From a virus: a DNA stretch of 64,000 nt. The stretch covers positions 5,460 through 69,459 of IMG/VR virus record IMGVR_UViG_3300029314_000002; one strand, 5' to 3'. Below the pieces are notes generated by a model. That model searched no databases and was not told the origin of the DNA. It worked only from the letters and a program-made list of their open reading frames with translations. The translations under genes and the position numbers were made by a program. How positions within the stretch are numbered: position 1 is the stretch's first letter; every line of letters begins with the position of its first letter. Below are positions 27,099 to 42,068 of the stretch, one piece after another.

Positions 27099-27100
27099 GA

Positions 27101-27158: not shown

Positions 27159-27782
27159 TCAATCGAAAAGGGTGGGGTTTTCGGGGAATTCAGGGAACAA
27201 TTCGGGGGACGCGGCAGATTTGGATGTGCGCTTGCCCCAGGTGATTTCGATGAAGTCGTTCTGCCAGTAGTGGGCTGCGCGATCGGTGTAGGGATCGGGG
27301 GTTTCGGAGGGCGGGTTGAGTTGACAACCGATTTCGAGCCAGTGCTGGACGCCACGGGCCATTGAACGGCCGCGGCCGGTGTGTTTGTCCAGGGCGTAGT
27401 CGGGGACTTCAAGGCGCTTGCCGTGCAGCCGGTCCTGGTGAACGGCGCATTGGAAGTGGTCGGCCAGCCTGGATTTGGGGGATCGGCACATGACGAGGAT
27501 GGTGTTGGCGAGGATGAGCCGGGCGCTGGAGTCTTTGCCCTCGCTGCGCATCTCGAAGTAGAGGGTGCGCTGGTTGGGGACAAGGGCGAGCAGGCCGGGG
27601 TTGGCGATGCCGATGTCTTCGTTGGCGATGATGATGAGCCGGCGCCAAAGGTACGTTTCGAACTTGGGGATGAGTTCGAGCGACCAGTACATGGCAGCTT
27701 CTTCGTTGGCACGGCGAATCTCTTTTTGCAGGGACGAGATTACGTCGAACAGGTTGTAGTGGTTTTGGGTGACGATGTTCAT
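27159..27782 (-). CDS. Stand-alone MgsA_C/RarA-lid-like helical protein (no AAA+ core)
   Basis: YNLFDVISSLQKEIRRANEEAAMYWSLEL...RRLIIIANEDIGIANP. Confidence 0.65.
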   Translation of the reverse strand: MNIVTQNHYNLFDVISSLQKEIRRANEEAAMYWSLELIPKFETYLWRRLIIIANEDIGIANPGLLALVPNQRTLYFEMRSEGKDSSARLILANTILVMCRSPKSRLADHFQCAVHQDRLHGKRLEVPDYALDKHTGRGRSMARGVQHWLEIGCQLNPPSETPDPYTDRAAHYWQNDFIEITWGKRTSKSAASPELFPEFPENPTLFD

Positions 27783-27804
27783 GTGTGATCTCCTTTGGTG
27801 CGAA

Positions 27805-27833
27805 AGTTTCGCACGCCTGTTCTAATATGTCAA
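27805..27833 (-). promoter_or_regulatory. Promoter TTGACA-N17(TGc)-GAAACT
   Basis: The -35 hexamer overlaps the stop of the upstream gene; palindrome GTGCGAAAgTTTCGCAC in the leader. Confidence 0.45.
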
Positions 27834-28237
27834 TCCTGATCCGGGAGCATGAGGGTGATGACGGGTTCGGCGTTGTCGCCGGGGCCAACGACGAGCTTGA
27901 AGGTGAAGATTTCACGGTCTTCGATGCCGGTGATTTTGACCTGGAATAGCACTGTGGCGGGATCGGGGCGGGCGATGATGTAGCGCAGGCTCATCCACAT
28001 GATGTCGTTCCAAATGCCGGTCAAGTCGTTGTGGAGAAGCGGGTTGTCTGCGGCTTGCTCGATGATGAAGAAGACTTCGGCGGTCATGGCGATGGGGTAT
28101 TTGTAGGTTTGCCGGCTGATCTGTCCGAGTGGGCCGGTGGAGGCATCTACGAGAACGCCGTCGGCGATGGCTTGTGCTCTGCTGTAGCTGAAGATGAGAT
28201 CGGCGTCTGTCCAGGGGGCGGTGGGCGGGATGTTCAT
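27830..28237 (-). CDS. Hypothetical protein of a plasmid/ICE-associated family (name not recalled)
   Basis: Start MNIPPTAPW; IFSYSRAQAIADGVLVD ... GPGDNAEPVITLMLPDQD. Confidence 0.6.
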   Translation of the reverse strand: MNIPPTAPWTDADLIFSYSRAQAIADGVLVDASTGPLGQISRQTYKYPIAMTAEVFFIIEQAADNPLLHNDLTGIWNDIMWMSLRYIIARPDPATVLFQVKITGIEDREIFTFKLVVGPGDNAEPVITLMLPDQD

Positions 28238-28283
28238 GATTTTGCTGTCCTTTCTGGCTAGATTTGATTGAACTGACAGGTTG

Positions 28284-28312
28284 ACTCTCGCACGAGAGGC
28301 ATGAGAAGTCAA
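28284..28312 (-). promoter_or_regulatory. Cassette promoter D: TTGACT-N17(TGc)-GAGAGT with leader
   Basis: Shares AGAGATTGAC, GAGAGT, GTCAGTTCAATC and CAGAAAGGA blocks. Confidence 0.5.
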
Positions 28313-28405
28313 TCTCTTTGGTGGGCGAGTTTTCACGCAGGTTTCCACCAGTTTTTGTCGCCGACCGGCCCTGGCTGGGGGCAGGGCCGGCCGCGTTGGA
28401 ATGGG

Positions 28406-29416
28406 TCAGGGGCGGAGTTGGCTGCCGGAGCGGAGGGGGCTGGGGCCGTGCGGCGGGTAGGCAAAGCCGGCTTCGAGTATGGCCTGGTAGAAGCTGCCGA
28501 TGATAGGGGCGATGGCCTGCAGGTGCGGGTCAGGGTTGGTGAGCAGCTCATGGATGTAGGTTTCGATGCTGAGGCCGATTGAGCCTACGCGGCGCATTTT
28601 GGGGATGGCGCCATCCACGGGGAAAACGGGCTGCTGCCAGGCGGTGCGGCTGGCGGCATGGTCGTCGAGGGTTTGGGTGATGAAGAAGTCAAGGTTGAAC
28701 ATTGTGTCCTGGGCTTGTTCGGCGCGCAGGCGGTTGCAGATGGCGCGGAATTCGCGCAGGAGGGGGCGCTCGGAGGTGTTCAGGTAACGGAAGGCGATGA
28801 ATTGGCGGTTGCGGTCGAGATCGGCCATGCACTCGCCGAATTGGACGCCGACGATGTTCTGTTGGACAAGGCGTTGTACGTCGGGGATGAGGTGCAAGAG
28901 GCTGAGGCGGGCCTGGATGCGTTTGGGGGTGACTTTGGCGGTGCGGGCGAGATGGGCGATTGTCCAGTCGAATTGGTCGAGGCGCTTTTGGTAGGCGCGG
29001 GCTTCGTCAATAGGGTCTATGTCAACGCGATGGACGTTTTCGATGAGCATGATGGCGCTGGCTTGCTGATCGGTGAGGTCGCGGATGATGGCGGGGACGG
29101 TGGGCCAGGCGAGCAGGCCGATGGCGCGCCAGCGGCGTTCGCCGGCGACGATCTGGTAGACGGCGGGCCAGGTGGCGCCGGCGCAGTCGCAGTATTCGGT
29201 GGGGCGGTCGCCTGTGCAGGTGATTTGGCGGCAGCGTGGGCAGTGGTAGAGGGGGCGGACGGTGATGGGTTGGATGAGGCCTTCGGCTGCGATGCTGTCG
29301 GCGAGGGTCTGGAGGTCTTCGGGGCGGAAGACGGTGCGGTCGTTGTCGCCAGTGCTGATCTGGTGGTAGGGGATGGGGGTGATGGTCGGCTGGACTGTGT
29401 GCGAATCGGCAGGCAT
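28406..29416 (-). CDS. ParB/Srx-family protein with zinc-ribbon insert
   Basis: GLIQPITVRP ... IVAGERRWRA ... MLIENVHR; CPRCRQITC...CDC. Confidence 0.85.
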   Translation of the reverse strand: MPADSHTVQPTITPIPYHQISTGDNDRTVFRPEDLQTLADSIAAEGLIQPITVRPLYHCPRCRQITCTGDRPTEYCDCAGATWPAVYQIVAGERRWRAIGLLAWPTVPAIIRDLTDQQASAIMLIENVHRVDIDPIDEARAYQKRLDQFDWTIAHLARTAKVTPKRIQARLSLLHLIPDVQRLVQQNIVGVQFGECMADLDRNRQFIAFRYLNTSERPLLREFRAICNRLRAEQAQDTMFNLDFFITQTLDDHAASRTAWQQPVFPVDGAIPKMRRVGSIGLSIETYIHELLTNPDPHLQAIAPIIGSFYQAILEAGFAYPPHGPSPLRSGSQLRP

Positions 29417-29488
29417 GGTCAGGTCCTTTCATGGTGAACGATGGGGCCAGCAGCGGGGGGCTGCTGGCGACTGAGAATGAATCGGGGA

Positions 29489-30418
29489 TCAATGCGGACG
29501 ATTGGCGAACACGCTGATGCAGCGTTGCTGGAGTTCGGTAACTTTTTCGCCGTAGGCGATCCAGGTTGCTTTGGGCCAGCCGTAGGGGATTCGGGCGCTG
29601 CCCGGTTTTCGCTGCGTCTGGCCGAGGGCTTGTAGAAGCTCGTCGCCGGCCTCTTGCCATTCTGGGCAGCACAGCTGAAAATCGAATTTGGGTGATTGGG
29701 GAACCTGGGCGGCACGGTGGCAGAGGCCGAGGGCGGTGGTGATGTAGCCGATGGCTTTGATGCTGTTCAGGGTGGCGGCGAAGATGCGAAACTCGATTGT
29801 CTGTTTGCTGTTGAACAGGTTGCACAAGTTGAGCGTGTGGTAGCGATCTTCGATTTTGCGCTCTTTGACCAGGTCAAGATCGTCGGTTGTGGCGATGAGC
29901 ATGTTTTCGTCACGGGTTTTGACGGTTTTGCAGTAGTCGTTACGCATGCGCTCAGGAGAGTTGATGGTGGCGTAGATGCCGAATTCGTGATGGCTGACCA
30001 GGTTGAGGATGCGATGAAGGAAACGCACCATGACCGGCGATGTTTCCGGGGATTCGCCCAGCAGGGAGGCGATGCCTACGTGTACGTGGAAGCCGCAGGT
30101 GCTGTTGATTTTGGCTTCTGCGGCGTTGAGCAAGTCGAAGATTTGGACGATTTCTGAGATGCCCTGACTGCCGTGCAACACCGGGGAGACGATTTCGAGC
30201 GGCGTGTAGCCGGCGGGACAGTTGCGCAGGGAACTATCGGCCTGGGTTTCCCACAGCGGCGGGAAGGGGGCGGGAAGGGCGTACCCGTGATGGTAGCGAC
30301 CAATGCGGATGGCGTTCTCCCACAGATAGGAGTTGGGGAGGAAACACTCGATCTCTACGCCGAAGGTGATTTGCTCGGCGTCAACGGTGATGAAGCGGGA
30401 CTTGTTATTGGCGGCCAT
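29489..30418 (-). CDS. Amidoligase_2-type (GS-like carboxylate-amine ligase) enzyme
   Basis: FGVEIE, LEIVSP, CGFHVHVG, TIEFRIF; start MAANNK (30418) fits the cassette RBS spacing. Confidence 0.75.
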   Translation of the reverse strand: MAANNKSRFITVDAEQITFGVEIECFLPNSYLWENAIRIGRYHHGYALPAPFPPLWETQADSSLRNCPAGYTPLEIVSPVLHGSQGISEIVQIFDLLNAAEAKINSTCGFHVHVGIASLLGESPETSPVMVRFLHRILNLVSHHEFGIYATINSPERMRNDYCKTVKTRDENMLIATTDDLDLVKERKIEDRYHTLNLCNLFNSKQTIEFRIFAATLNSIKAIGYITTALGLCHRAAQVPQSPKFDFQLCCPEWQEAGDELLQALGQTQRKPGSARIPYGWPKATWIAYGEKVTELQQRCISVFANRPH

Positions 30419-30463
30419 GGGTGACATTCCTTTCTGACTGGGTTCGATTGAACTGACGGTCTC

Positions 30464-30492
30464 ACTCTCTCACCGACAAATCGGGGGGTCAA
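30464..30492 (-). promoter_or_regulatory. Cassette promoter B: TTGACC-N17(TGa)-GAGAGT with leader
   Basis: Leader identical to copy A over about 45 nt. Confidence 0.5.
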
Positions 30493-30505
30493 TCTCTGTG
30501 CGGCA

Positions 30506-30765
30506 CGAGTTTATCCCTGAGTTTTGGAAGGTTGGCGAGGTTGATTTTGGGATACGGCAGAGGTGGGGCGCCGATGTGGCGCGCGGGCGCTCTGAAAGTG
30601 CTCACCCAGGAACTGCCGGAAGGCGCCATGCGCGTGCTGGGCATAGGACAGTATGGCGTGAGGGCGATGGCACTTGAGAGCACCCATGAGCCGCCGGTTG
30701 GCGTTGGGGATGAAGGGAGATGTGCTTGGTGAACGCGTGTGGATGCACCTGGGGGCATTTGTGAG
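30506..30765. repeat. ~270-nt conserved non-coding element, copy B
   Basis: See 26823..27098. Confidence 0.75.
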
Positions 30766-30829
30766 GGCGTTGCGGTGAATTGGTTTGGGGGTTTGGTGGC
30801 TTAGATGTATAATTGGCGGGAGCCTTCTT

Positions 30830-30870
30830 GTCCTTTCTGGCTGTGATTGAACTGACATTCTCCATGACTA
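30830..30870 (-). repeat. Orphan leader remnant (copy E) without ORF
   Basis: GTCAGTTCAATCacagcCAGAAAGGAca, followed by no start codon. Confidence 0.6.
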
Positions 30871-30889
30871 GGGACGATGATAAGAGGCG

Positions 30890-30927
30890 ACAGGCGGCGA
30901 CATGTCACATGTCGCCGCCTGTTTTTG
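30890..30927. terminator. Hairpin ACAGGCGGCGACAT-N-ATGTCGCCGCCTGT (copy B)
   Basis: 14-bp stem followed on the plus strand by TTTTTGTTT. Confidence 0.65.
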
Positions 30928-30933
30928 TTTGGT

Positions 30934-31563
30934 TCAGGAAAGGGCGAGGAAGGAGGCGAAAAGGGCGGTGGATGTCGGGGACTGCAAGATTTCAGGGTGC
31001 CATTGTACTGAGATGACGGGCAGGCGGGGGTGTTCGATGGATTCGACGATGCCGCCGGCTGTGGCGGCGATGCGCCAGCCGGCGGGGACATCGGCGACGG
31101 CCTGGTGGTGCAATGAGTTGACCTGACAGGTGCGCGTCTTGAGGATGCGGCTGAGCCGGCTGCGAGAGACGATGACGATGTCGTGGATGTTCGAGCGATG
31201 TTCGATGCCAGTATCCTGCCAGATGTCCTGGTGGAGGGTGCCGCCGGCGACGGCGCAAATCATCTGGTGCCCGCGACAGATGCCCATGATTGGTTTGGCG
31301 TCAGCCAGGGCAAGGGTGGCGAGGCCGTATTCGAGCGGATCGCGGCGGGATGCGACGGGGTGGGCGAAGCGCACGCGGGTATTGTAGTAGGATGGGTGAA
31401 TGTCGGCGCCGCCGGGGAGGAGGATGTGCGAGGCCTTTTCGTACATTTTGTACGGGTTTTCGTTGGGGGCGAGGATGTGGACGCTGGCGCCGAGGGTGCT
31501 GAGTCTCCAGCAGATGTGGTCCGTGAAGGAGCCTGGGGTGACGAGGACATGCGGTTTGACCAT
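30934..31563 (-). CDS. Class-I glutamine amidotransferase (peptidase C26 / PuuD-like)
   Basis: GICRGHQ nucleophile elbow; VQWHPE. Confidence 0.85.
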   Translation of the reverse strand: MVKPHVLVTPGSFTDHICWRLSTLGASVHILAPNENPYKMYEKASHILLPGGADIHPSYYNTRVRFAHPVASRRDPLEYGLATLALADAKPIMGICRGHQMICAVAGGTLHQDIWQDTGIEHRSNIHDIVIVSRSRLSRILKTRTCQVNSLHHQAVADVPAGWRIAATAGGIVESIEHPRLPVISVQWHPEILQSPTSTALFASFLALS

Positions 31564-31611
31564 GAGAATGATTCCTTTCTGATCTGTGAATTCGGTTGAA
31601 CTGACGGTCTC

Positions 31612-31640
31612 ACTCTCTCACAGGCCAATCGAGGTGTCAA
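31612..31640 (-). promoter_or_regulatory. Cassette promoter C: TTGACA-N17(TGa)-GAGAGT with leader
   Basis: Same architecture as copies A and B. Confidence 0.5.
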
Positions 31641-31724
31641 TCTCTGGGCGGTACGAGTTTATCCCTGAGTTTTTTGGGACTGATTTGGGATACGGGAAAC
31701 GAGTTTGGTCGACGCGCGTGCGCG

Positions 31725-31772
31725 AAAAAACCAGAAGCCTCGTGAATCGGTGTTCACGAGGCTTCTGGTTTT
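31725..31772. terminator. Bidirectional terminator
   Basis: AAAAAA-CCAGAAGCCTCGTGAA-tcggtg-TTCACGAGGCTTCTGG-TTTT. Confidence 0.8.
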
Positions 31773-31795
31773 GTGGGGGGGCGATGGGCGCCCGT

Positions 31796-32338
31796 TTATG
31801 CGGCGCTGGGCGCTGCAAGGATGGTGTTGTTGGGGCCAACGCTAAGGCCGGCCGGGGTGAGCAGGATGTCGAGCAGGGTCTGGTGATCTTGGGTGGACGT
31901 TCCGATCTGCTCTGCTATGCCCTGGCCGATCATTTGGTAGGATGTGACGGCGCCCCCTCGGGCCAGTTCGATGAGGACGTTTTGTCCGGTATATGTGGTG
32001 TACATGACGTTTCTCCTTATTTTTCTTCTTGTCTTGCCACCTGACCGCCCAGGTGGGCAATCGCCGCTAGCAGGCAGGCCAGCCGGCGTTGATTCAATTC
32101 TGTGCCCACGAAGGGCTTGCCTGCCCGGTAGGCTGCCAGCCCTACCAGGCCGCGGCCCATGCAGCGGCGCCGGGCTGGGCGTGATTTCAACCGCCAGCAT
32201 GGCCGCGATGCGATCCATCACGTCCATGCGGACGGCGATCTGCGCCAGGGCCACGTCGAGCGGGACGCCCAGGCGGCGAGCCAGGTTGTCGAGCCGGGTG
32301 GCCGTATCTGCGGATAGGGTGAGCGTGCGGTCGTTCAT
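31796..32338 (-). CDS. RHH-type N-terminus + P/G/R-rich linker + 69-aa C-terminal module (which may also be made separately from ATG 32005)
   Basis: RTLTLSADTATRLDNLARRLGVPLDVALAQIAV; in-frame internal AAGGAG-N6-ATG at 32005. Confidence 0.5.
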   Translation of the reverse strand: MNDRTLTLSADTATRLDNLARRLGVPLDVALAQIAVRMDVMDRIAAMLAVEITPSPAPLHGPRPGRAGSLPGRQALRGHRIESTPAGLPASGDCPPGRSGGKTRRKIRRNVMYTTYTGQNVLIELARGGAVTSYQMIGQGIAEQIGTSTQDHQTLLDILLTPAGLSVGPNNTILAAPSAA

Positions 32339-32346
32339 CTGGGCCT

Positions 32347-33345
32347 CTATAGCGGAATCTCTGCCATCATCTGGTCGCGGGCTTTGCCGAAGTTGAGGGT
32401 GGTCTCCGGGATGCCGGCGAGGAGTTCCTGCGCCTGCTGGATCAGCAGGGACAGCTCGGCGCGCGGCGTTTCTCGAAACGGAATGCGCTTGCTGTATTGG
32501 TAGTTGATGTGCATGTCGAAGATATGAATGTCTAGCGTCGTCTGCCCGGCCAACTTGCGTAACAGGGCCAGATCGTGCGCCTGGTCTGGGTTCGCCTGGC
32601 TTGGATTGAGAAAAGTCTCGAACTTGAGCGGATGGCCCGGCTGATCCCTGATCTCCAGCGCCAGGCGGATCACGGCGCCGGCGTCAGGGTAGAGGCCAAG
32701 CATGGTCTGGAACGCCACCGGCACGCCGGGGCGATGTGCGCTTTGTGCGTCTTTCCGTTCGCACTTGACGATGATGGCGACCTGGTCGTTCACCTCCATC
32801 GCTACGGCGGTCGCCTCCGGCCACATGCGCAGCACCTGCGCCACATTCACTGGTAATGAGACTGACATAGGTTCCTCTCCTTCGATGAGTCTGTAGATGC
32901 CGGCCGACCGATTGCCGGCGCCAGTCGTTTCGGCACGCCGCCATAGACGTGACGGCAATGTGATGTTGTGCTGCTCGACGCGATCGCCGGGTTGCACGGG
33001 CGGGCGGCCGGCCATCGTGCCGCGCACGCCGCCAGGGCGGTCGGAGCGCGGGGCGCGGTCAACGACGGTCGAGAGGGGGGTCGCAACGCCTATGTCATGA
33101 ATTGGCACATCAAGGAGCAGATCAATCGTGAGTTTGGTGTGCCGCTTCCCTTCGTCCCCGGAGAGGACGTGAGCGTTGTCGCCATCGTCCCAGCCGATGA
33201 GGGCCTTCCAGTATTGTCCGGGACGCGCAGACTCCAGATGGGAGCCGTTGCGCGCGACGATGAGCAGCCGGCGCGGCGGGTTGGCTGCGTAGTAGTAACG
33301 GCGGGCGCCATCTATGGTCTGCTCGCCAGTCTTGATGACACGCAA
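32347..33345 (-). CDS. Hypothetical protein; in-frame internal start at 32868 (173-aa product) has a strong RBS
   Basis: AAGGAGAGG-N5-ATG precedes MSVSLPVNVAQ. Confidence 0.5.
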   Translation of the reverse strand: MRVIKTGEQTIDGARRYYYAANPPRRLLIVARNGSHLESARPGQYWKALIGWDDGDNAHVLSGDEGKRHTKLTIDLLLDVPIHDIGVATPLSTVVDRAPRSDRPGGVRGTMAGRPPVQPGDRVEQHNITLPSRLWRRAETTGAGNRSAGIYRLIEGEEPMSVSLPVNVAQVLRMWPEATAVAMEVNDQVAIIVKCERKDAQSAHRPGVPVAFQTMLGLYPDAGAVIRLALEIRDQPGHPLKFETFLNPSQANPDQAHDLALLRKLAGQTTLDIHIFDMHINYQYSKRIPFRETPRAELSLLIQQAQELLAGIPETTLNFGKARDQMMAEIPL

Positions 33346-33415
33346 CTCGCCGGCCGGCTGGCCATAAAAGTATTATAGCTGTCAAATTGATTGAGTGCGT
33401 GTGAGCGTTGGTGGT

Positions 33416-33448
33416 TTGCAAATTATAGAACATGTGTTCTATAATTTG
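33416..33448 (+). promoter_or_regulatory. Promoter TTGCAA-N18-TATAAT overlapped by a 30-bp perfect palindromic operator
   Basis: CAAATTATAGAACA-TG-TGTTCTATAATTTG. Confidence 0.65.
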
Positions 33449-33495
33449 GCATTGACGAATGCTTGTTACGTAGTTGTATGAGATCAGGAGGGTGT

Positions 33496-34209
33496 ATGTC
33501 GGTTGATTTTGGGGGTATGCGCGTGGTGAAGGCGAATGATCTGCTGCCGGATGAGCATAATGCAAATCTGGGGACGGATCGGGGGCGCGGGATGTTGGAT
33601 AAGTCGCTGCGCGATTTGCGGGCAGGGCGTTCGATCCTGGTGGATCGGAATGGGAAGGTGATTGCCGGCAATAAGACGCTGCAGAGCGCAGCCGGGGTGG
33701 GGATTGAGGAGATCATCATTGTGCCAACGGACGGGAGCCGGCTGGTGGCTGTGCAGCGCACCGACCTGGATTTGGACACAGACGCCGATGCTCGCGCCCT
33801 GGCCTATGCCGATAATCGCGTGGCCGAGCTTGATCTGGTGTGGGACATCGAGCAGTTGATGCGCGACATCGAGAGCGGCGTGCAGCTCGATGGCTACTTC
33901 TACGATGATGAGGTGGCCCGGCTTATCGAGGGCATCATCGAGGACGAGAAGGGGGATAAAGCCAAAAAGGCGGGCGGTGACGCGGCGCCGGCGATGGCGT
34001 TGCAGCCGTTCGAGCATTACGACTATGTGATGCTGGTGTTCAGGAATCAGATGGACTGGACGAAGGCCGTGTCGTTCCTGGGCATTGACCGGGCGGCGTT
34101 CGATATTGGGAAGGGCCGGCGCAAGGTTGGGATGTGCCGGGTGATTGATGGCGCGAGGGCGATAGATAAATGGGAATCAGGGTCGTCATTCCAAGTAAGA
34201 GCCGAGTAG
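33496..34209 (+). CDS. ParB-like nuclease-domain protein
   Basis: Start MSVDFGG (GGAGGG RBS); LLPDEHNANLGTDRGRGMLDKSLRDLRAGRSILVDRNGKVIAGNKTLQSA. Confidence 0.7.
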   Translation: MSVDFGGMRVVKANDLLPDEHNANLGTDRGRGMLDKSLRDLRAGRSILVDRNGKVIAGNKTLQSAAGVGIEEIIIVPTDGSRLVAVQRTDLDLDTDADARALAYADNRVAELDLVWDIEQLMRDIESGVQLDGYFYDDEVARLIEGIIEDEKGDKAKKAGGDAAPAMALQPFEHYDYVMLVFRNQMDWTKAVSFLGIDRAAFDIGKGRRKVGMCRVIDGARAIDKWESGSSFQVRAE

Positions 34210-34901
34210 GGGATTGCCGCACCGCGCTTGCGCTGTTTCCTGGGGCCACGGTTGTGGTCAATGAGGAGCAGGCGCAGCAGTATGAGGTGCTGGGGGCGCC
34301 GCTGCTGGCGCACCCCAAAGACTTGTGGGGGATTGGGCCGCTCAAGAATTGGATTCTGGATCATGTGGATGATGAGTGTGTGTTCATCGTGGACGATGAT
34401 GTGTACCAGGTGCGCTCGCCGGTTGGTTCTCCGACCAGGTCACATGTGATTCGTGATCCAGAGGCGATTCGGCAGTTTGTGGAGAATACGGCGGAGATTG
34501 CGCGGGGGATTGGGGCGCCTGTGTTTGGTTTCGATCAGACGGGCGGGGATACGCGTAAGTTCAGGCCGCAGGACCCGATGAGGTTTTGCGGGTGGGTGGG
34601 TGCGGCGATGGGGATCGTTGGGCGGGAGATTCGTTTCGATCCTGAGTTGCGGATTCGGGCGGATATTGATTTTTGTCTGACGGCGCAGTTGCGCCGGCGG
34701 GTGATTGTGATGGACGGGCGATTTTCGTTCATTCACAGGAAGCGGTGGAGTTATCCGGGAGGAAATAGCCTGAGCCGCAGCGGGAAGCGGAATCAGGCGG
34801 AGTTGGCTTATCTGCAGCGAAAGTGGGGGGAATGGATTACGGTGCAGAATTCGGCGACGACGACGCTGATTGTGGTGAATGTGGAAAGGAGATGGCGATG
34901 A
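34170..34901 (+). CDS. GT-A-like glycosyltransferase candidate
   Basis: VVIPSKSR ... ECVFIVDDDV (DxD-like); family not verified. Confidence 0.5.
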   Translation: MGIRVVIPSKSRVGDCRTALALFPGATVVVNEEQAQQYEVLGAPLLAHPKDLWGIGPLKNWILDHVDDECVFIVDDDVYQVRSPVGSPTRSHVIRDPEAIRQFVENTAEIARGIGAPVFGFDQTGGDTRKFRPQDPMRFCGWVGAAMGIVGREIRFDPELRIRADIDFCLTAQLRRRVIVMDGRFSFIHRKRWSYPGGNSLSRSGKRNQAELAYLQRKWGEWITVQNSATTTLIVVNVERRWR

Positions 34902-36166
34902 CGCGCGTGTGCGTGATTGGGCTTGGGTATGTGGGGACGGTGGTGGCGGGGTGTCTGGCGGCAATAGGACATCGGGTGATGGGGGTGGAGAAGGATCGGC
35001 AGCGAGCGGATGATTTGCGGGAGGGCCGGCTGGCGGCGGCAGAACCGGGGTTGGGTGATTTGTGGGCGAGGGCGCTGGCGGGCGGGGCGCTGACGGTGGA
35101 GGATTCAATTGGGTATGCGGTGGAGCGGTGTGATGTGGTGATGTTGTGTGTGGGGACGCCTGCGGTGGCGGGCGGTGGGTTCGATTATGGGGATCTGCGG
35201 GCGGGATGCGAGGAGGTTGGGAGGGCGTTGGCGAATCAGGCGGAACGGCGCTTGGTGGTGGTGCGGAGTACGGTGACGCCGGGAACAACGCGCGGGGTGG
35301 TGGTGCCGGCAGTCGAGCGGGCTGCAGGGAAACGCGCGGGCGATGGGTTTGGGGTGATTTATAATCCTGAGTTTCTGCGTGAAGGGTATGCGGTGGGGGA
35401 TTTTATGCGGCCTCCGTTCGTGGTGATTGGGGGGGACGATGCGCAGGATCGGGCACAGTTGCGGGAGTTGTATGTTGGGGTTGATGGGCCGCTGGTGGAG
35501 ACGGCGGTGGAGACGGCGGAGCTGGTGAAGTTGGTGAGTAATGTGTGGCACGCGTTGAAGGTGACTTTTGCGAATGAGATGGGGCGGATGAGTCGCTCGC
35601 TGGGGGTGAACGGGCAGGAGTTGATGGAGATTTTTTGCCGTGATGAGCGGTTGAATATCAGTGCTGCATACCTGCGCCCTGGTTTTGCGTTTGGGGGGCC
35701 GTGTTTGCCGAAGGATGTGCGGGCGTTGATGGGGTTGGGGGCGCAGCGCGGGCTGATGTTGCCATTGTTGGAGGCGGTGCTGCCGAGTAACGATGTGCAT
35801 GTGGAGCGCGCGGCGCAGGTGGTGAAGCAGACGCGCGCGGAGCGGATTGGGGTGATTGGTTTGGCGCACAATCAGCATACGGGTGATCTGCGGGATAGTC
35901 CGGCGCTGCGGTTGATTGGGTGCTTGACGAATGGGGAGCTGCGCCGGCGGGTGCGGGCGTTCGATGAGTCGGTGCCGGTGGCGCCGGTGAGAGACGAGGC
36001 GCAGGTGGAGGTTGTGGGGTGTATAGAGGATGTGGTGCGGTGGTGCGAGGTTTTGGTGGTGACGACGAAGGTTGATTATGGGCAATTGCGGTTGCGGCCT
36101 GGGCTGTTGGTGGTTGATTTGACGCGCGGTGATGAGGGTGCGTTTTTACAAATGGGGGTAGCGTAG
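34898..36166 (+). CDS. ugd: UDP-glucose/GDP-mannose 6-dehydrogenase family enzyme
   Basis: VCVIGLGYVGTVVAGCLA Rossmann; GFAFGGPCLPKD catalytic Cys; ATGA overlap with the upstream stop. Confidence 0.9.
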   Translation: MTRVCVIGLGYVGTVVAGCLAAIGHRVMGVEKDRQRADDLREGRLAAAEPGLGDLWARALAGGALTVEDSIGYAVERCDVVMLCVGTPAVAGGGFDYGDLRAGCEEVGRALANQAERRLVVVRSTVTPGTTRGVVVPAVERAAGKRAGDGFGVIYNPEFLREGYAVGDFMRPPFVVIGGDDAQDRAQLRELYVGVDGPLVETAVETAELVKLVSNVWHALKVTFANEMGRMSRSLGVNGQELMEIFCRDERLNISAAYLRPGFAFGGPCLPKDVRALMGLGAQRGLMLPLLEAVLPSNDVHVERAAQVVKQTRAERIGVIGLAHNQHTGDLRDSPALRLIGCLTNGELRRRVRAFDESVPVAPVRDEAQVEVVGCIEDVVRWCEVLVVTTKVDYGQLRLRPGLLVVDLTRGDEGAFLQMGVA

Positions 36167-36211
36167 TATGATTTGCGTATGGGAATAGGCCGGGAGGGTG
36201 ATTTTGGGGTG

Positions 36212-36231
36212 AAAAGGCGTTAAAAGGCGTT
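36212..36231. repeat. Tandem AAAAGGCGTT x2 in the lower-GC gap before the terminase genes (cos/terminase-binding candidate)
   Basis: Read directly. Confidence 0.3.
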
Positions 36232-36277
36232 CTGGGGCGTCATTTTATTTGGCTCTTTGTGTATAGGTTTGGGGCAG

Positions 36278-36988
36278 ATGGACGACGCCAACGCGTGGGA
36301 TCGGTTGGATGGGGAGTCGAGTTTGTGGTTCGTGCGGTTCGACGCGTACCGGTTGTTGGGGCCGCGGCGAACGCTGCAGCGGGCGGTGCGCGCGGAGCGG
36401 GCGCAGGAGAAGGAGAGTTCGCGCGCGCGGCGCGTGCCCGGCTCCTGGGGACGTGCGGCGCAGCAGTGGCGATGGGAGGAGCGGGCGCAGGCGTGGGACG
36501 AGGAGGTGCGCCGGCGGGATGAGGAGCGATGGGAGTTGCGGCGCCGACGGTTGCGCGAGAGGGAGTGGAAGTCGGCGCAGGATTTGGTGGGTAGGGCGAA
36601 GCAGATGTTGGCGTGGCCGTTGGCGCGCCAGGAAAAGAAAGATGAGGATGGCCGTCAAACGACGGTGGTGATGCCGGCGCGCTGGACGATGCGCGATGCG
36701 GCATCTTTTTTTGAGACGGGGTCAAAGCTGGCGCGGCTGGCGGCCGACATGGCGACCAGTAAGGAGAAACACGAGGTCGGCGGGTCAATTGAGATAAAGC
36801 GGCCCTTCGATCTGGAGAAACTGAGCGATGACGAGCTTGCTGCCCTCCTTGCCAACCTCCGGGCGGTTGCAGATGGCGCTGGCGGCGCAGGCGCACCTGG
36901 TGCAGCGCCGGCGGGCGACCGGGGGCGACGATCTGCTGACGTGGACGATGAAGTACCGGATCATGCTGTCGCCGAAGACGCCGTTTGA
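36278..36988 (+). CDS. Terminase small subunit candidate
   Basis: Position upstream of and overlapping terL; WFVRFDAYRLLGPRRTLQRA HTH-like; charged coiled region. Confidence 0.5.
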   Translation: MDDANAWDRLDGESSLWFVRFDAYRLLGPRRTLQRAVRAERAQEKESSRARRVPGSWGRAAQQWRWEERAQAWDEEVRRRDEERWELRRRRLREREWKSAQDLVGRAKQMLAWPLARQEKKDEDGRQTTVVMPARWTMRDAASFFETGSKLARLAADMATSKEKHEVGGSIEIKRPFDLEKLSDDELAALLANLRAVADGAGGAGAPGAAPAGDRGRRSADVDDEVPDHAVAEDAV

Positions 36989-38534
36989 CCTGACCAATCA
37001 CGCGTATCTGCAGGGTCTGTATGAATGCGACGCCCGGCAGATGGTGGTGAAGAAGGCCGGCCAGGTGGGCGCCAGCGAGTACCTGGTGAGTTATGCGCTG
37101 CACGCGGCGGACGCGCGGCGCATGGATATTTTGTACGTGATGCCCACAGATGACGATGTGTCGGATTTCAGCCGCACGCGGTTTGGGCCGGCGTTGGAGG
37201 CGAGCACGTACCTGGCGGAGATCGTGGTGGATGGCTCGGCGGATGCGCGGCGCGGCGCGGACCGGGTGACGTTGAAGCGCATTCACAATAGTTGGCTGTA
37301 CTTCCGTGGCGGTCGCGTGAAGCCGGACGGTAACGCGCCGCAGTTGAAGTCGTTGCCGGCCGACGGTATCATCCTCGATGAGTACGATGAGATTGACGTG
37401 CGAGCGCCGGAGCTGGCGCGCAAGCGCCTGGGGCACAGCGCACACAAGGAGGAGCGTGATGTCTCCACGCCAACCTACACGGGCGTGGGGATTGATCTGG
37501 AATGGCGCAATACAGATCAACGCCTGTGGCACCTGCGCTGTGACCACTGCGGGACGTGGCAGACGCTCACGATCCAGCAGGTGGTGATCGAGCAGGATGA
37601 ACTGGGCCGGCCGGTGGACTGGTGGGGCCGCGCGGAGGGACGCGCGTTTGTGGCGTGCCGGCGCTGCCAGCGGGAGATGAACCGCCTGGCGGTCGGGCAG
37701 TGGGTGCCCACCTTCCCAGGGCGTGACGTGGCGGGCTTTCATCTGTCGAAGCTGTTCAGCGCGCAGGCCAACCTGATGAGTACGATCAGGGCGCTACAGA
37801 CAGCCGACGAGTCGAAGCGTAAGGAAGCCTTCAACCAGGACTTGGGGGAGCCATACACGCCGCAGGGGGGCGGGCTGACTGACCAGGTGCTGGATGCGTG
37901 CCGGCGTGAGTATGCGCCAGGAGCGCTGGCTAAGGAGCGCACGGTGATGGGTGTGGACGTGGGGCGGGTGCTGCACTACGTGATTAGAGGGCCGGCGGAT
38001 GCGACCACGGGCGAGCGACCGCTGCGGCGGGCCGGCGAGGCGGTGTCGTTCGATGAGGTGGGGCGGTTGATTCGGGCGTTCAATGTGGGCGTCTGCGTGA
38101 TGGATGCCTTGCCGGAGACGCACGCCGCGCGTAAATTGCAAGGCGAGGTGAACGCAGGGCGGCGGGGCACGGTGTGGCTGGCATACTATTCCAGCTTCGA
38201 GGGCACGCGGCATGAGGACATCGGCCAGTGGAACGACAAAGAGGGCATTGTGACATTGGACAGGACGCGCGCGATGGATGAGATGATGGTGCGGTTCACT
38301 GATGGCAAAAACACGCTGCCGGCGACCATGCGCAGCAGCGTGGACTACTACGAGCATTTGAAGGCGTCAGTACGGGTGACTGAACGCAAACGCGACGGGA
38401 ACCTGGCCGCGCGTTACGTGGAAAGCGGGCCGGATCACTATGCTCATGCGGAGACCTACTGTGCTGCAGCCAGCCTGCGGCCGCGAGCGGTGGGTGTGCT
38501 GGCGCAGGGTACGGCGAAGGGGTGGGGGATTTGA
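36828..38534 (+). CDS. terL: Terminase large subunit, GpA (lambda) family
   Basis: KKAGQVGASE, IILDEYDE, CDHCG...CRRCQ zinc motif; exact start uncertain (36828, 36873 or 36948). Confidence 0.9.
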   Translation: MTSLLPSLPTSGRLQMALAAQAHLVQRRRATGGDDLLTWTMKYRIMLSPKTPFDLTNHAYLQGLYECDARQMVVKKAGQVGASEYLVSYALHAADARRMDILYVMPTDDDVSDFSRTRFGPALEASTYLAEIVVDGSADARRGADRVTLKRIHNSWLYFRGGRVKPDGNAPQLKSLPADGIILDEYDEIDVRAPELARKRLGHSAHKEERDVSTPTYTGVGIDLEWRNTDQRLWHLRCDHCGTWQTLTIQQVVIEQDELGRPVDWWGRAEGRAFVACRRCQREMNRLAVGQWVPTFPGRDVAGFHLSKLFSAQANLMSTIRALQTADESKRKEAFNQDLGEPYTPQGGGLTDQVLDACRREYAPGALAKERTVMGVDVGRVLHYVIRGPADATTGERPLRRAGEAVSFDEVGRLIRAFNVGVCVMDALPETHAARKLQGEVNAGRRGTVWLAYYSSFEGTRHEDIGQWNDKEGIVTLDRTRAMDEMMVRFTDGKNTLPATMRSSVDYYEHLKASVRVTERKRDGNLAARYVESGPDHYAHAETYCAAASLRPRAVGVLAQGTAKGWGI

Positions 38535-38613
38535 GATGTAATAGCATTTACCGACTGATAACGGTTATCAGTCGGTAAATACTGCTACGTTTTCGTGGTT
38601 GAGGAGGTGAGGT

Positions 38614-40029
38614 ATGGCGAGTTGGTTGGGGCGATTGTTGGGTAGAGAGGAAACAAAGACACGGGCAAAGGGCACAGGATCGGTGACGCCGCAAACGCTG
38701 GCCGGCGGGCGGCTGTCGTGGGACGACGCGGGTATTTTTGGGATGGGCGCCAGCGTGATGATGGCGCCGGAATCGCCAGAGACGACCTGGCGCCAACTCA
38801 ATTTGGATGCGCAGACGCTGGATCGCATGTCGCCGGCAGAGCTTATGCGCCTGCTGCCGGATATTTCGCCGGATGTGAGCCGCGCGCTGTGGGACTTCTT
38901 GCGGCTGTGTAACCCAGGTTGGACGGCGCAGACGTTCGAGCCTGGGAGCAGCAATCCAAGCCCGACCGCCCAGTCTGCGCTCGATGCGTTCCTGGCCCAG
39001 ATCACCGGTCCCTATGCCGGCGATAATCCGGTGGGCGCGGATGTGGTGTTTGGAATGCTTTTCATGGGAGCCTTCCTGCGCGGGGCTTTCTTCGCTGAGA
39101 TGGTGCTGGATGCGGCCGGCCGCGCGCCGTTGAATCTGGCTGCCGTGGATCCGATCAGCGCCCGGTTCGAGAAAGTGACTGATCGCGCGCTGGGACAGGT
39201 CTGGAGGTTGGGGCAGATGCAAGGTGGGCGTTTCGTGCGCTTGGCGCGGCCGACCATTCAGTATGTGCCGATTGACCCGTTGCCTGGCAGCCCCTACGGC
39301 CGGCCGCTGGCTGCGTCTGCGCTCAATACGGTGCTATTCTCTCTTGGTCTGATGAACGATCTGCGGCGCGTGGTGCAGCAGCAGGGATGGCCGCGGTTGG
39401 ACCTGGCGATTGATTTCGACAAGTTGGCGAACCTGATGCCAGCCAACACGGAAGATGATCCGACGGCGGTGCAGACCTGGGCGCGCCAGATTATCACGGA
39501 GGTGCAGAACGTGTACGCCAGCCTGGAGCCAGACGACGCGTACATTCACAGCACGGCGATCGTGGTCAACCAGGGTGTGGGGACGGTGAACAGCAACAGC
39601 CTGGGTGCGATTGACCCCATCATTCGCGCGCTGGAACGGACGGTGATCCGGGCGCTGAAGACCATGCCAGTGCTCATGGGTGTGAACGAAGCCACGACCG
39701 AAACCCATGCCGTGCAGCAGTGGGAGATTCACGCGGCCGGCATCAAGAGCTTGCAGCACAGGCTGGAGGCGATGCTGGAACGGCTGCTCGGCCTGGCGTT
39801 GCAGGCGCAGGGCATTCAGGCGACGGTGAAGTTTCGGTTTGCGGAGTTGCGGGCCTCGGAGCTGATGCGGGATGCACAGACGGAGGCGCTGGTGATTGCG
39901 AACGCCGCGCGCAAGCGCGATGAGGGGTGGATTACGCAGGACGAGGCGGCGCAGGCCGTCGTGGGGCATGTGGCGGTTGCGGAGAAGACGATGTCCGCGG
40001 CCATACCAGTGAGTCTGACAGCGGGGTGA
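38614..40029 (+). CDS. Portal protein
   Basis: 471 aa immediately after terL; MSPAELMRLLPDISPDVSRALWDFLRL. Confidence 0.8.
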   Translation: MASWLGRLLGREETKTRAKGTGSVTPQTLAGGRLSWDDAGIFGMGASVMMAPESPETTWRQLNLDAQTLDRMSPAELMRLLPDISPDVSRALWDFLRLCNPGWTAQTFEPGSSNPSPTAQSALDAFLAQITGPYAGDNPVGADVVFGMLFMGAFLRGAFFAEMVLDAAGRAPLNLAAVDPISARFEKVTDRALGQVWRLGQMQGGRFVRLARPTIQYVPIDPLPGSPYGRPLAASALNTVLFSLGLMNDLRRVVQQQGWPRLDLAIDFDKLANLMPANTEDDPTAVQTWARQIITEVQNVYASLEPDDAYIHSTAIVVNQGVGTVNSNSLGAIDPIIRALERTVIRALKTMPVLMGVNEATTETHAVQQWEIHAAGIKSLQHRLEAMLERLLGLALQAQGIQATVKFRFAELRASELMRDAQTEALVIANAARKRDEGWITQDEAAQAVVGHVAVAEKTMSAAIPVSLTAG

Positions 40030-40032
40030 ATC

Positions 40033-40275
40033 ATGGACGTGCAGGTTGTCGTGGTGCGTGGGGCAGAGAAAGAGAAGCCGGTGTCGTATCGGCTGGAGAA
40101 CGGCGTACTGGAAGTGTGGATTGAGGCAGCGGGCACGCCGCCAGCGGCTAAGAAGGCCGAGGCGTTGGAGGGCGATTACTGGCTGTACCTGCATGAGCAG
40201 GGCGGCCGGCATCGCCCACCAGATAGGGATCATCGGATGCAGAGGCCGGCGCGCGGGCGAGTGCAGCCGCTGTAA
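40033..40275 (+). CDS. Small hypothetical protein
   Basis: 80-aa ORF after portal. Confidence 0.35.
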   Translation: MDVQVVVVRGAEKEKPVSYRLENGVLEVWIEAAGTPPAAKKAEALEGDYWLYLHEQGGRHRPPDRDHRMQRPARGRVQPL

Positions 40276-40358
40276 TGATTGGAGCCGGAAGCCTGGCTGG
40301 GGATCGTCTATCTCGTTTGGAGATAGACCTCTTTGAGATAGCTGGTGTCGGGGGTTAC

Positions 40359-40673
40359 ATGGCCGGGACCAACACGTCCTCACTGGCAACGTTGCCAGTG
40401 AGAGAAGAATTCACCACCAATCTACCAGAGGGGACGATGGCGCACGGGGCTTTGCTGGCTTTGCGACGAGCACATTTGAGGGCGCTCACGCAGTTGGCGG
40501 GGTATCTACGCCAGACCCTGTCGCCGGCCGAGCGCGAGCTGTGGCTGCGGATTCGGCAGGCCAGGTTGATCGAACTGGGAGCGGTTGAGGAGTACCTGGC
40601 GTTGCCGAGGACGGTGATGCCGCGGCGTAAGCGGAAGAAGACCGTAGATTGCGGATGGGAAAAAGAACGGTGA
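40359..40673 (+). CDS. Hypothetical protein (contains palindrome copy 2)
   Basis: Start MAGTNTS chosen within ORF 40275..40673. Confidence 0.35.
   Translation: MAGTNTSSLATLPVREEFTTNLPEGTMAHGALLALRRAHLRALTQLAGYLRQTLSPAERELWLRIRQARLIELGAVEEYLALPRTVMPRRKRKKTVDCGWEKER
40379..40402. repeat. Perfect palindrome CTCACTGGCAACGTTGCCAGTGAG, copy 2
   Basis: Identical to 16341..16364. Confidence 0.9.
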
Positions 40674-41989
40674 CTGATGGCGTGATACTACATGTCGGCG
40701 ATTGCCTGGACGTTATGCGGGCAATGGAGCCAAACAGCGTTGACGCCATTGTGACCGATCCTCCCTATGGGCTGGGGTTCATGGGGAAGGATTGGGATCA
40801 CGGGGTGCCGGGCGTGCAGTTCTGGCGTGAGGCGCTGCGAGTTGCCAAGCCTGGGGCGCATCTGCTGGCGTTTGGCGGTACCCGGACATTCCACCGGCTG
40901 GCTGTGACGATTGAGGATGCGGGATGGGAGATTCGGGATACGATCATGTGGGTGTATGGATCGGGTTTCCCGAAATCGCACGATGTGAGCAAGGCGATTG
41001 ACAAGGCGGCAGGTGAAACACGCGAGCGGATCCGGGGCGTGCGCTCCGGTGTCGTGCGAGGAACCTACGCGCAAGACGAATGGTCGAAGGAGTTCAAAGA
41101 TTCCGTGTTGTCGCCCAATCCGATCACTTCCGACGCCGCACGCTGGCAGGGTTGGGGCACGGCGCTGAAACCGGCGTGGGAGCCGATCATTGTGGCCCGG
41201 AAGCCTCTGCAGGGGACGGTGGCCGCCAATGTGCTTGAATGGGGCACGGGAGCGATCAATGTGGATGGGTGTAGGGTGGGGACGGCTGAAGACCTGAATC
41301 CCACAGACTATGACGATTCACGACGCACAGCGCCAAAGTTCAGCGGGAAGTATAACAACGGGAAGGATGGACAATACCGCGCCAGGACTGGCGCGGTACC
41401 ACCGGGAAGATGGCCTGCAAACGTCATTCACGACGGCAGCGATGAGGTGGTGGCGGGGTTTCCAGTGACGGGGAACAGTTACCGCGAGAACCGCGAAAAT
41501 CACAAGCCGGTCGTAAGTGGTATGTTTCACGGTTCCAACGGCGCAACGCCACACAATGACGCCGGCAGTGCTGCGCGCTTCTTCTACTGTGCGAAGGCGA
41601 GCAAGGCGGATCGGGATGAGGGGCTGGATGGGATGGATGAGCGTGATGCAAGTGTGGGCGATAGGCGACCAAGCGGAAGTATGAGCCAGCGCATACATGC
41701 AGACGAAGGTAGACCAGATACCACGGCCCGCAACCATCACCCGACGGTCAAGCCAATCGCCCTCATGTGCTACCTGGTGCGGTTGGTGACACCGCCTGGC
41801 GGGGTGGTGCTCGATCCGTTCATGGGCAGTGGCAGCACGGGCAAGGCGGCAATGTTGGAAGGTTTCCGCTTCATCGGGATCGAGATGGACGCTGATTACC
41901 TGGACATTGCGCGGCGGCGTATTGGGGCGGTGCGGCTTCCGCTGTTGCAGATTGAGCAGGATGGCGCAATGGAGGATGGGAGCAGGTGA
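40649..41989 (+). CDS. Beta-class N6A/N4C DNA methyltransferase
   Basis: IVTDPPYG (motif IV) then VLDPFMGSGSTG (motif I). Confidence 0.9.
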   Translation: MRMGKRTVTDGVILHVGDCLDVMRAMEPNSVDAIVTDPPYGLGFMGKDWDHGVPGVQFWREALRVAKPGAHLLAFGGTRTFHRLAVTIEDAGWEIRDTIMWVYGSGFPKSHDVSKAIDKAAGETRERIRGVRSGVVRGTYAQDEWSKEFKDSVLSPNPITSDAARWQGWGTALKPAWEPIIVARKPLQGTVAANVLEWGTGAINVDGCRVGTAEDLNPTDYDDSRRTAPKFSGKYNNGKDGQYRARTGAVPPGRWPANVIHDGSDEVVAGFPVTGNSYRENRENHKPVVSGMFHGSNGATPHNDAGSAARFFYCAKASKADRDEGLDGMDERDASVGDRRPSGSMSQRIHADEGRPDTTARNHHPTVKPIALMCYLVRLVTPPGGVVLDPFMGSGSTGKAAMLEGFRFIGIEMDADYLDIARRRIGAVRLPLLQIEQDGAMEDGSR

Positions 41990-42033
41990 CACAGGGCCCG
42001 GCGGCGGATTTGGGGTGATGAGCAAAATACGAA

Positions 42034-42062
42034 TTGACAAGATTTTGGGGTTGTGGTAAAGT
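42034..42062 (+). promoter_or_regulatory. Promoter TTGACA-N17-TAAAGT
   Basis: Read directly. Confidence 0.6.
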
Positions 42063-42068
42063 TCCTGG

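Follow-up and report, generated by a model that had tools for sequence, protein, structure and literature searches.

Why does a glycosyltransferase gene lie between the genes for a ParB-like protein and a nucleotide-sugar dehydrogenase directly ahead of the terminase genes of a phage, and what does the enzyme glycosylate? We addressed this question for a three-gene cassette at positions 33496–36166 of a 64000-nucleotide stretch of viral DNA (IMG/VR record IMGVR_UViG_3300029314_000002, positions 5460–69459 of that record; the whole stretch is hereafter called the window). A first-pass annotation, made from the sequence letters, had described three overlapping genes directly ahead of the terminase, and the list of open reading frames (ORFs) together with the matches of both terminase subunits agrees with this layout:

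33496..34209, + strand: gene for the ParB/Srx-fold protein (ORF list; 237 amino acids; alternative start at 33463)
34170..34901, + strand: gene for the TAGT-family GT-A glycosyltransferase (ORF list; 243 amino acids)
34898..36166, + strand: gene for the AlgD-like nucleoside diphosphate (NDP)-hexose 6-dehydrogenase (ORF list; 422 amino acids)
36257..36988, + strand: terminase small subunit, terS (phrog_6299 at 1.4e-8)
36828..38534, + strand: terminase large subunit, terL, of the GpA type (PF05876, GpA_ATPase, and PF20454, GpA_nuclease; phrog_675 at 2e-91)

The first and second genes of the cassette overlap by 40 nt and the second and third by ATGA, with AGGAGG 7 nt 5′ of the ParB-like ATG (33496) and GGAG 6 nt 5′ of the dehydrogenase ATG (34898), and TerS and TerL are encoded directly downstream of the dehydrogenase gene. 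The reading that we put forward, with a little less than even confidence, is that the cassette serves to attach a hexuronic acid to phage DNA, guided by the ParB-like protein and independently of TET.

The middle protein had been taken for a glycosyltransferase from a VVIPSKSR...IVDDDV layout. This motif is present, and the protein belongs to the TAGT family (TET-associated glycosyltransferase, PF20691) of GT-A enzymes; we infer its donor and acceptor from the evidence set out below. It matched PF20691 at 42.5 bits (cut-off 27.5 bits; E 8.8e-11) over profile positions 2–198 of 205, a domain carried by 61 of 65 glycosyltransferase homologues, and its PHROG match was phrog_842 (beta-glucosyl-HMC-alpha-glucosyltransferase; 2e-14). 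An AlphaFold (AF2) model, with 61 homologues in the alignment, gave a predicted local distance difference test score (pLDDT) of 92 and a predicted template modelling score (pTM) of 0.91. Searching the BFVD viral predicted structures with Foldseek returned TAGT-domain phage proteins with template modelling (TM) scores of 0.77–0.83 and E-values of 1e-16 to 1e-11, including the beta-glucosyl-HMC-alpha-glucosyltransferase of Klebsiella phage PKO111 (TM 0.82) and proteins of Ralstonia phage phiRSL1; in the PDB, Foldseek found only generic GT-A folds at TM ~0.5 (TarS, AvpGT, B4GALNT1 and TarP). In the alignment, D76, D77 and D167 are invariant and R12, D75, D165 and F168 nearly so. By pattern, not by superposition, the acidic motifs D75-D76-D77 and D165-I-D167-F correspond to the R...DDD...EDY/F motifs of JGT and the phage GT-A enzymes, as described for phage GT-A DNA glycosyltransferases (bioRxiv 10.1101/2023.12.21.572611). 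The glycosyltransferase is predicted to be soluble, with zero transmembrane segments. Profile searches of PDB sequences with the TAGT and with the ParB-like protein gave nothing significant, and no NCBIfam model matched either of them. The first-pass annotation had proposed profile and structure assignment as a check on this enzyme; by both, it groups with the TAGT and T-even DNA enzymes and not with envelope-polysaccharide enzymes.

The first protein of the cassette was confirmed as ParB-like, as annotated, by its PHROG families (phrog_620 at 2e-14; phrog_498, a DNA methyltransferase N-terminus, at 7e-13) and by its ParB/Srx fold. It comprises an N-domain (residues ~1–140) and a small C-terminal alpha-beta-beta-alpha domain (~170–230), modelled by AF2 with a pLDDT of 84.6. 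Foldseek related the N-domain to the pNOB8 ParB-N structure 5k5d (probability 1.00, root-mean-square deviation 2.1, 70 columns), ParB-CTP, Noc, Srx and SerK, with probabilities of ~1 and weak E-values (3e-3 or worse). The Pfam ParB_N profile was not significant for the window protein and passed in the Microbacterium phage orthologue (34.9 bits). An invariant GNKT stands where the canonical GERR motif would be, and a Pfam scan found no HTH_ParB; the model likewise shows no recognizable helix-turn-helix (HTH) domain, the N-domain being followed by helices and the small domain only. With GNKT for GERR and without an HTH, a partition ParB acting as a CTPase clamp was rejected. A true ParB is encoded elsewhere in the window (28406..29416), and the cassette protein had no detectable similarity to it or to the window's ParB–methyltransferase.

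In database homologues, modules 55–64% identical to the N-domain (~135 residues) are fused to PF01555 N6/N4 methyltransferases, DUF4417, DUF6610 or a second ParB_N. Among its best 80 IMG/VR relatives, 25 are methyltransferase fusions and 17 have a TAGT gene downstream; the C-domain is recognizable in 11 of these 80, with TAGT downstream in 11 of 11, and within this set it appears to be specific to the TAGT-linked forms. PADLOC gave no defence-system membership, the ParB-like protein matching the N-terminus of the MTase_II model only. As a side observation, DUF6610 and DUF4417, being fused to the same ParB/Srx N-domain (P0114, P0128), are by association candidate DNA-modifying domains.

For the third protein, the assignment to the UDP-glucose/GDP-mannose dehydrogenase family on the basis of GxGxxG and GGPCLPKD was upheld. 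All three UDPG_MGDP_dh Pfam domains were detected (PF03721 at 2e-44, PF00984 at 2e-25 and PF03720 at 1e-7, the last, C-terminal domain being divergent in the phage enzyme at only 32.5 bits), as was TIGR03026 at 330 bits (cut-off 189.8), with none of the NCBIfam equivalog thresholds reached. Its motifs are GLGYVG, the catalytic Cys in GGPCLPKD, and KLVSN...KVTFANE, aligned to AlgD. The top PDB match was AlgD itself (1mfz; 321 bits, with 43% identity over 363 residues in a nearly gap-free alignment), the best UDP-glucose dehydrogenase scoring 217 bits. All full-length cassette dehydrogenases from related loci also scored nearer AlgD, and among the best 120 database homologues each one named by its source was called a GDP-mannose 6-dehydrogenase. 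The phage enzyme is thus probably, to judge from sequence, a GDP-mannose 6-dehydrogenase giving GDP-mannuronic acid. The first-pass annotation had proposed a uronic-acid donor, with UDP-glucuronic acid as the assay substrate; the AlgD-like character of the enzyme makes GDP-mannuronic acid the likelier donor.

Is this arrangement peculiar to one phage? A TAGT alignment scan found 61 loci in IMG/VR, which with 34 prophage loci gives ~95, counts that were not de-replicated. When every ORF lying up to 7 kb from the glycosyltransferase gene was included in a clustering of the IMG/VR neighbourhoods, the only families widely common to the 61 viral loci were TAGT (61), the ParB-like protein (56), a protein consisting of MgsA_C only (38) and the dehydrogenase (16). 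The ParB-like gene lies on the same strand, with a median start 720 nt upstream of TAGT. The prophage scan, of one genome per species, yielded 31 loci, to which three fetched earlier were added (two of them duplicating scan loci) to give the 34 scored; a ParB-like gene was found in 31 of these, an MgsA_C-like gene in 24 and a dehydrogenase gene in eight. The cassette arrangement is not due to chance, because the ParB-like/TAGT pair is present in 56 of 61 and 31 of 34 loci and the dehydrogenase in 16 and 8 respectively. The prophage hosts belong to Chloroflexota, Planctomycetota (including the cultured Fontivita pretiosa), Lentisphaerae and Verrucomicrobiota, with an Acidiferrales metagenome-assembled genome (MAG) in addition; the closest, at 63% identity, is an Anaerolineales MAG (Chloroflexota).

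Among cultured phages, a homologue is carried by 56 records of Microbacterium phages and by a single record of a Streptococcus phage, and blastn of the cassette and terminase against cultured phages gave no match. In the lytic Microbacterium phage KaiHaiDragon (cluster EC), the order is ParB-like gene, 76-residue ORF, glycosyltransferase, 'UDP-glucose dehydrogenase' and 'AAA-ATPase', the last being the MgsA_C-like protein; the cassette is located near the right genome end and the terminase at the left end, the cassette thus being upstream of the terminase. The published description of cluster EC names the glycosyltransferases and the dehydrogenase and assigns no role to them (PMC7302621), and our literature search found no paper on DNA modification in these phages. 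Terminase or portal genes followed 1–7 kb downstream in five of six Pfam-annotated contexts (the five reaching far enough), and the most distant loci had terminase families as their most frequent neighbours. In some relatives an ORF of 76–80 residues stands between the ParB-like gene and TAGT (L001:9762-10004; L004:5742-5972); the window lacks it, and there the two genes overlap.

A dehydrogenase gene adjoins the pair in about a quarter of the loci, in three arrangements: a full-length AlgD-like enzyme downstream in Chloroflexi-type phages, one of ~250 residues downstream in Microbacterium phages, and, in Planctomycete prophages, the same short form encoded ahead of the ParB-like gene (L079, L087, L076 and L081). 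In the ~250-residue 'mini' dehydrogenases (e.g. L004:6699-7481), GxGxxG and three catalytic residues (Cys, Lys and Asn) are retained and the C-terminal NDP-binding domain is missing; these proteins might oxidize a sugar that is already attached instead of an NDP-sugar. The MgsA_C-only protein (~205 residues) is the C-terminal half of RarA/MgsA without the AAA+ core, with the motifs SxLQKxIRR...EDIG...HT.RG, and its gene, labelled 'AAA-ATPase' in Microbacterium phages, often stands directly 3′ of TAGT (e.g. L004:7527-8147, L030, L038 and L044). In the window it is located in the other arm, 6 kb from the cassette:

27159..27782, − strand: MgsA_C-only protein (PF12002 at 1.3e-13)

Two window proteins, AAA_5 and a 390-residue protein (187..2135), were considered as homologues of the AAA_5/DUF7192 pair beside Planctomycete TAGT genes and proved unrelated. 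The component families are known, and glycosyltransferase contigs have been counted in bulk, ~65% of them being orphans without a 5mYOX or ThyS neighbour, with ParB and terminase noted as neighbours (bioRxiv 10.1101/2023.12.21.572611). In the literature we found no description of a module of ParB/Srx protein with TAGT-specific C-domain, TAGT and AlgD-like or mini dehydrogenase, with or without the MgsA_C-only protein, and none of its ~95-locus breadth or its independence of TET and ThyS.

The position of the cassette within the window suggests when it may be expressed. The + strand carries every gene from 33.5 kb onwards, so that the packaging and structural arm begins with the cassette, and the early genes on the − strand are those for ParB, RadC, an amidoligase/GATase, a ParB–N6/N4 methyltransferase, integrases, ParA and FtsK. 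The divergent control region proximal to the cassette, and the gap between the cassette and terS, contain the following:

33416..33445, + strand: sigma-70-like promoter TTGCAA-18-TATAAT (10 of 12 positions in a consensus scan; a consensus match only)
33423..33444, no strand assigned: 22-bp perfect palindrome TTATAGAACATGTGTTCTATAA, read from the sequence, within the promoter spacer
36226..36241, + strand: weak terminator-like hairpin in the gap (consensus scan; number of hits not above that in shuffled sequence)

The core of the palindrome, GAAC-N4-GTTC, is unique in the window (0.58 occurrences expected by chance). The palindrome resembles a LexA site of the Cheo-box type and could equally be the operator of a phage repressor; a Cheo-type SOS box would presumably fit a Chloroflexota host. 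It was rejected as a conserved regulator of the cassette, since a LexA-box-like palindrome was present in only three of 54 related loci. Its position in the promoter spacer is an operator-like arrangement, which suggests that the cassette may be repressed in the lysogen.

How, then, might the three proteins act together? In the route that we propose, the dehydrogenase, whose family and catalytic residues are evident, would use NAD+ to oxidize an NDP-hexose to the NDP-hexuronic acid, the presumed substrate most likely being GDP-mannose and the product GDP-mannuronic acid. The TAGT enzyme, which has the family, fold and acidic motifs of a GT-A transferase, would transfer the sugar from this putative NDP-hexuronic acid donor to its putative acceptor. 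The ParB/Srx protein, which is paired with TAGT by gene order and shares its N-domain with methyltransferases, would form a complex with the glycosyltransferase and recruit it to DNA or license it there, a role that the ParB module may play in cis in the methyltransferase fusions. Expression from an operator-controlled promoter heading the packaging operon would mean that replicated phage DNA is modified shortly before packaging, and the modification would presumably blunt host nucleases. As no route to 5-hydroxymethylcytosine (5hmC) or 5-hydroxymethyluracil (5hmU) is encoded, the acceptor would be a group whose glycosylation in DNA is not yet known, or else the product of an unrecognized enzyme.

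Several lines of evidence point to a nucleic-acid-directed function. By sequence and structure the glycosyltransferase falls into a family in which the characterized phage enzymes have DNA as their substrate; the obligate partner of the glycosyltransferase combines a methyltransferase-type N-domain with a domain seen only beside TAGT; and the module stays ahead of the packaging genes across unrelated virions and lifestyles. The threefold separate recruitment of a dehydrogenase argues that the sugar transferred is a hexuronic acid, at least in the phages that bear this enzyme. The first-pass annotation had held that uronic acids are not a known substrate for DNA glycosylation, a statement that has been overtaken: Bacillus phage SP-15, which encodes a UDP-glucose dehydrogenase, has phosphoglucuronate on its DNA (PMC5977210), and characterized phage enzymes of the TAGT and GT-A types add sugars, hexuronic acid (HexA) among them, to 5hmC DNA, HexA-5hmC having been produced by phage glycosyltransferases in E. 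coli (bioRxiv 10.1101/2023.12.21.572611).

What weighs against DNA as the target is mainly the acceptor. Known glycosylated phage DNA starts from 5hmC or 5hmU, formed either after replication by a C5-methyltransferase and a TET-like oxygenase or before it by a thymidylate-synthase-like hydroxymethylase, and unmodified DNA bases have no hydroxyl for an O-glycosyltransferase. Pfam, PHROGs and NCBIfam searches covering essentially all sizeable early-arm ORFs of the window brought up no TET/JBP protein, ThyS-like hydroxymethylase or C5-methyltransferase; none was found within 10 kb in six Pfam-annotated relatives, nor among the annotated genes of the complete KaiHaiDragon genome. Likewise, Tet_JBP was not recurrent in the 18 most distant TAGT loci (138 ORFs pooled for a Pfam scan; the 25 top-ranking of 58 families), where terminases dominated and one 5-hmdU DNA kinase was seen. 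The ParB-like protein, without GERR or a recognizable HTH, is itself only proposed to bind DNA. Furthermore, the TAGT-family protein GREB1 is reported to glycosylate a protein (PMC7968844), and Pyle et al. see a DNA target as less obvious for glycosyltransferase contigs that have neither 5mYOX nor ThyS (bioRxiv 10.1101/2023.12.21.572611). DNA glycosylation thus remains something that we infer, because no enzyme forming a 5-hydroxymethyl-pyrimidine was found in the window or its relatives. The earlier proposal of DNA- or virion-directed glycosylation is accordingly strengthened as regards a DNA-type enzyme (TAGT profile and structure, methyltransferase-type ParB N-domain), whereas the enzyme that would form the acceptor is missing from it. 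A further formulation, which we consider rather unlikely, is that the ParB-like/TAGT pair glycosylates DNA without a 5-hydroxymethyl-pyrimidine precursor, a hexuronic (e.g. mannuronic) acid being placed where glycosylation is not known from any DNA, be it on an exocyclic amine or some other atom of a base, or on a group at the terminus or in the backbone. In this version the ParB/Srx protein would be an NTP-dependent loader, by analogy with DpdB for DpdA, and in the phages with a mini dehydrogenase the sugar might be oxidized after transfer.

Could the glycosyltransferase act on something other than an unconventional site in DNA? A protein may be O-glycosylated with the hexuronic acid, the ParB-like protein being a substrate or adaptor and not a DNA guide; the targets proposed are a protein of the capsid or tail, one of the two partners (ParB-like or MgsA_C-like), the terminase or a host DNA-binding protein. 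The precedent of GREB1, which is reported to O-GlcNAcylate a protein (PMC7968844), and the link of actinobacteriophage glycosyltransferases to capsid glycosylation (PMC11256854) speak for this explanation, as do the failure of the window scans to find a hydroxylated-base pathway and the adjacency of structural and packaging genes. We nevertheless consider it unlikely: the nearest structural relatives are proteins of phage DNA-glycosyltransferase families, the N-domain of the partner is elsewhere attached to DNA methyltransferases, and the cassette is located upstream of the terminase, outside the capsid and tail block, across very different virion types. A conventional acceptor, 5hmC or 5hmU or a sugar on it, might instead be supplied by the host or by a phage enzyme that went unrecognized. 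The biochemically defined phage TAGT and GT-A enzymes do all use acceptors derived from hydroxymethyl-pyrimidines, and several window ORFs had no family match (32347..33345, 18130..19278, 24605..25534 and 187..1359), but in no related locus is any of these ORFs conserved alongside the ParB-like/TAGT pair. No partners other than the ParB-like and MgsA_C-like proteins and the dehydrogenase are recurrent, and the MgsA_C-like protein was rejected as an oxygenase because its motifs make it plainly a RarA/MgsA C-terminal homologue. Since genes for a DNA polymerase or for enzymes of the nucleotide pool are missing from these phages too, a conventional acceptor seems to us quite improbable.

About as improbable, in our judgement, is an action on the cell envelope or the sugar pool, in which a host surface glycan would be altered (lysogenic conversion or superinfection exclusion) or GDP-mannose drained. 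AlgD-type enzymes normally feed exopolysaccharide synthesis, and the best PDB folds for the glycosyltransferase were the wall-teichoic-acid glycosyltransferases TarS and TarP, the latter prophage-encoded; those matches, however, reached TM ~0.5 as compared with ~0.8 for the TAGT phage proteins. There are no membrane segments and no flippase or polymerase partners, the obligate ParB-like partner would be left unexplained, the cassette occurs in strictly lytic Microbacterium phages, and the operator-bearing promoter and the position ahead of the terminase suggest expression in the lytic phase over expression in the lysogen. Lysogenic conversion, the alternative raised in the first-pass annotation, is thus disfavoured by the soluble proteins, the occurrence in lytic phages, the weak similarity to envelope glycosyltransferases and the operator-like site. 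Least probable of all, we think, is glycosylation of a nucleotide or other small molecule, e.g. at a 3′-OH, with the ParB/Srx protein as an NTP-binding partner, perhaps in counter-defence. The second-best PDB fold, AvpGT, is a GT-A enzyme that 3′-O-glucosylates nucleosides, and ParB/Srx domains bind NTPs (the ParB-CTP, SerK and Srx matches in Foldseek), but the AvpGT match (TM 0.56, 18% identity) was no better than those to other generic GT-A enzymes, PADLOC and the neighbourhood gave no defence-related context, and the N-domain of the partner is tied to DNA methyltransferases.

Outside the cassette, the element has features of its own. Its early arm (26064..31563 and 14886..17216, both on the − strand) carries a kit typical of the leading regions of conjugative elements, namely Amidoligase_2, a class-I GATase/Peptidase_C26, ParB, DUF6573, RadC and a 776-residue ParB (DGFHR)–N6/N4 methyltransferase, which recurs in related phages (L001, L003 and L010). 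Two tyrosine recombinases (3605..4585, − strand, and 21982..23037, + strand), ParA (7811..8581, − strand) and an FtsK/SpoIIIE-type ATPase (8703..10094, − strand) are found in the same element, which may be a phage-plasmid, or else a composite in which a phage is joined to an integrative or plasmid-like module. Over the whole of 1..64000 the + strand is rich in G, with a GC skew of +0.14 to +0.5 beyond ~6 kb. Since the first 33 kb carry mostly − strand genes and the rest + strand genes, and the + strand stays G-rich despite this switch in gene direction at ~33 kb, the skew tracks the DNA strand and not transcription.

On current understanding, glycosylation of phage DNA depends on a TET-like oxygenase or a thymidylate-synthase homologue to provide a pyrimidine that is hydroxymethylated (or hydroxylated). 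The cassette ties a DNA-type glycosyltransferase to a methyltransferase-type ParB module, with its own supply of an acidic sugar, in about a hundred phages across three phyla. Either there is a new acceptor chemistry in DNA or this branch of TAGT has moved to another target, and both outcomes would refine how phage glycosyltransferase genes are read, which matters because ~65% of such contigs have no known base-modification partner. Both also bear on restriction evasion, on the sequencing of modified DNA and on enzyme tools. The question of the acceptor is directly testable, because the cassette occurs in the easily grown Microbacterium phages of cluster EC.

Among known systems, the clusters of C5-methyltransferase, 5mYOX (TET) and glycosyltransferase (bioRxiv 10.1101/2023.12.21.572611) share with the cassette a TAGT/JGT-type GT-A enzyme with R...DDD...acidic motifs, frequent ParB-like and terminase neighbours, sugar-modifying accessory enzymes and HexA among the sugars installed. 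They differ in that no C5-methyltransferase, TET/5mYOX or ThyS was found with the cassette here or in ~95 loci, and in that the cassette has an obligate, overlapping ParB-like partner with a dedicated C-domain and an AlgD-like dehydrogenase. The T2/T6-type beta-glucosyl-HMC-alpha-glucosyltransferase is similar by PF20691 and phrog_842, and by the TM of 0.82 to the PKO111 orthologue. The identity of the T-even-type enzyme to the window glycosyltransferase is, however, low (~17%), and it adds a second glucose to alpha-glucosyl-5hmC that stems from a pre-replicative hydroxymethyl-dCTP pathway, which was not found here. Phage SP-15, with dihydroxypentyluracil–glucuronate DNA (PMC5977210), likewise has an NDP-sugar 6-dehydrogenase in its hypermodification cluster and a uronate on its DNA; its pathway, in contrast, begins with a hydroxymethyl-dUMP synthase, links the glucuronate by a phosphodiester and uses other transferases, with neither a ParB-like partner nor a TAGT. 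TarP and the virion glycosylation systems of actinobacteriophages also involve phage-encoded GT-A enzymes, capsid glycosylation having been proposed for mycobacteriophages (PMC11256854), but have no ParB-like partner, and their structural similarity is much weaker than that to the TAGT phage proteins. AlgD of P. aeruginosa (PDB 1mfz) has the same catalytic Cys motif and the 43% identity noted above, whereas it supplies alginate synthesis; the phage enzyme has a divergent C-terminal domain, and its substrate is predicted from sequence. Finally, in the phage ParB–N6/N4 DNA methyltransferase fusions the same ParB/Srx N-domain, at 55–64% identity, precedes the catalytic domain, whereas in the window the partner is a separate glycosyltransferase gene and the small C-domain takes the place of the methyltransferase.

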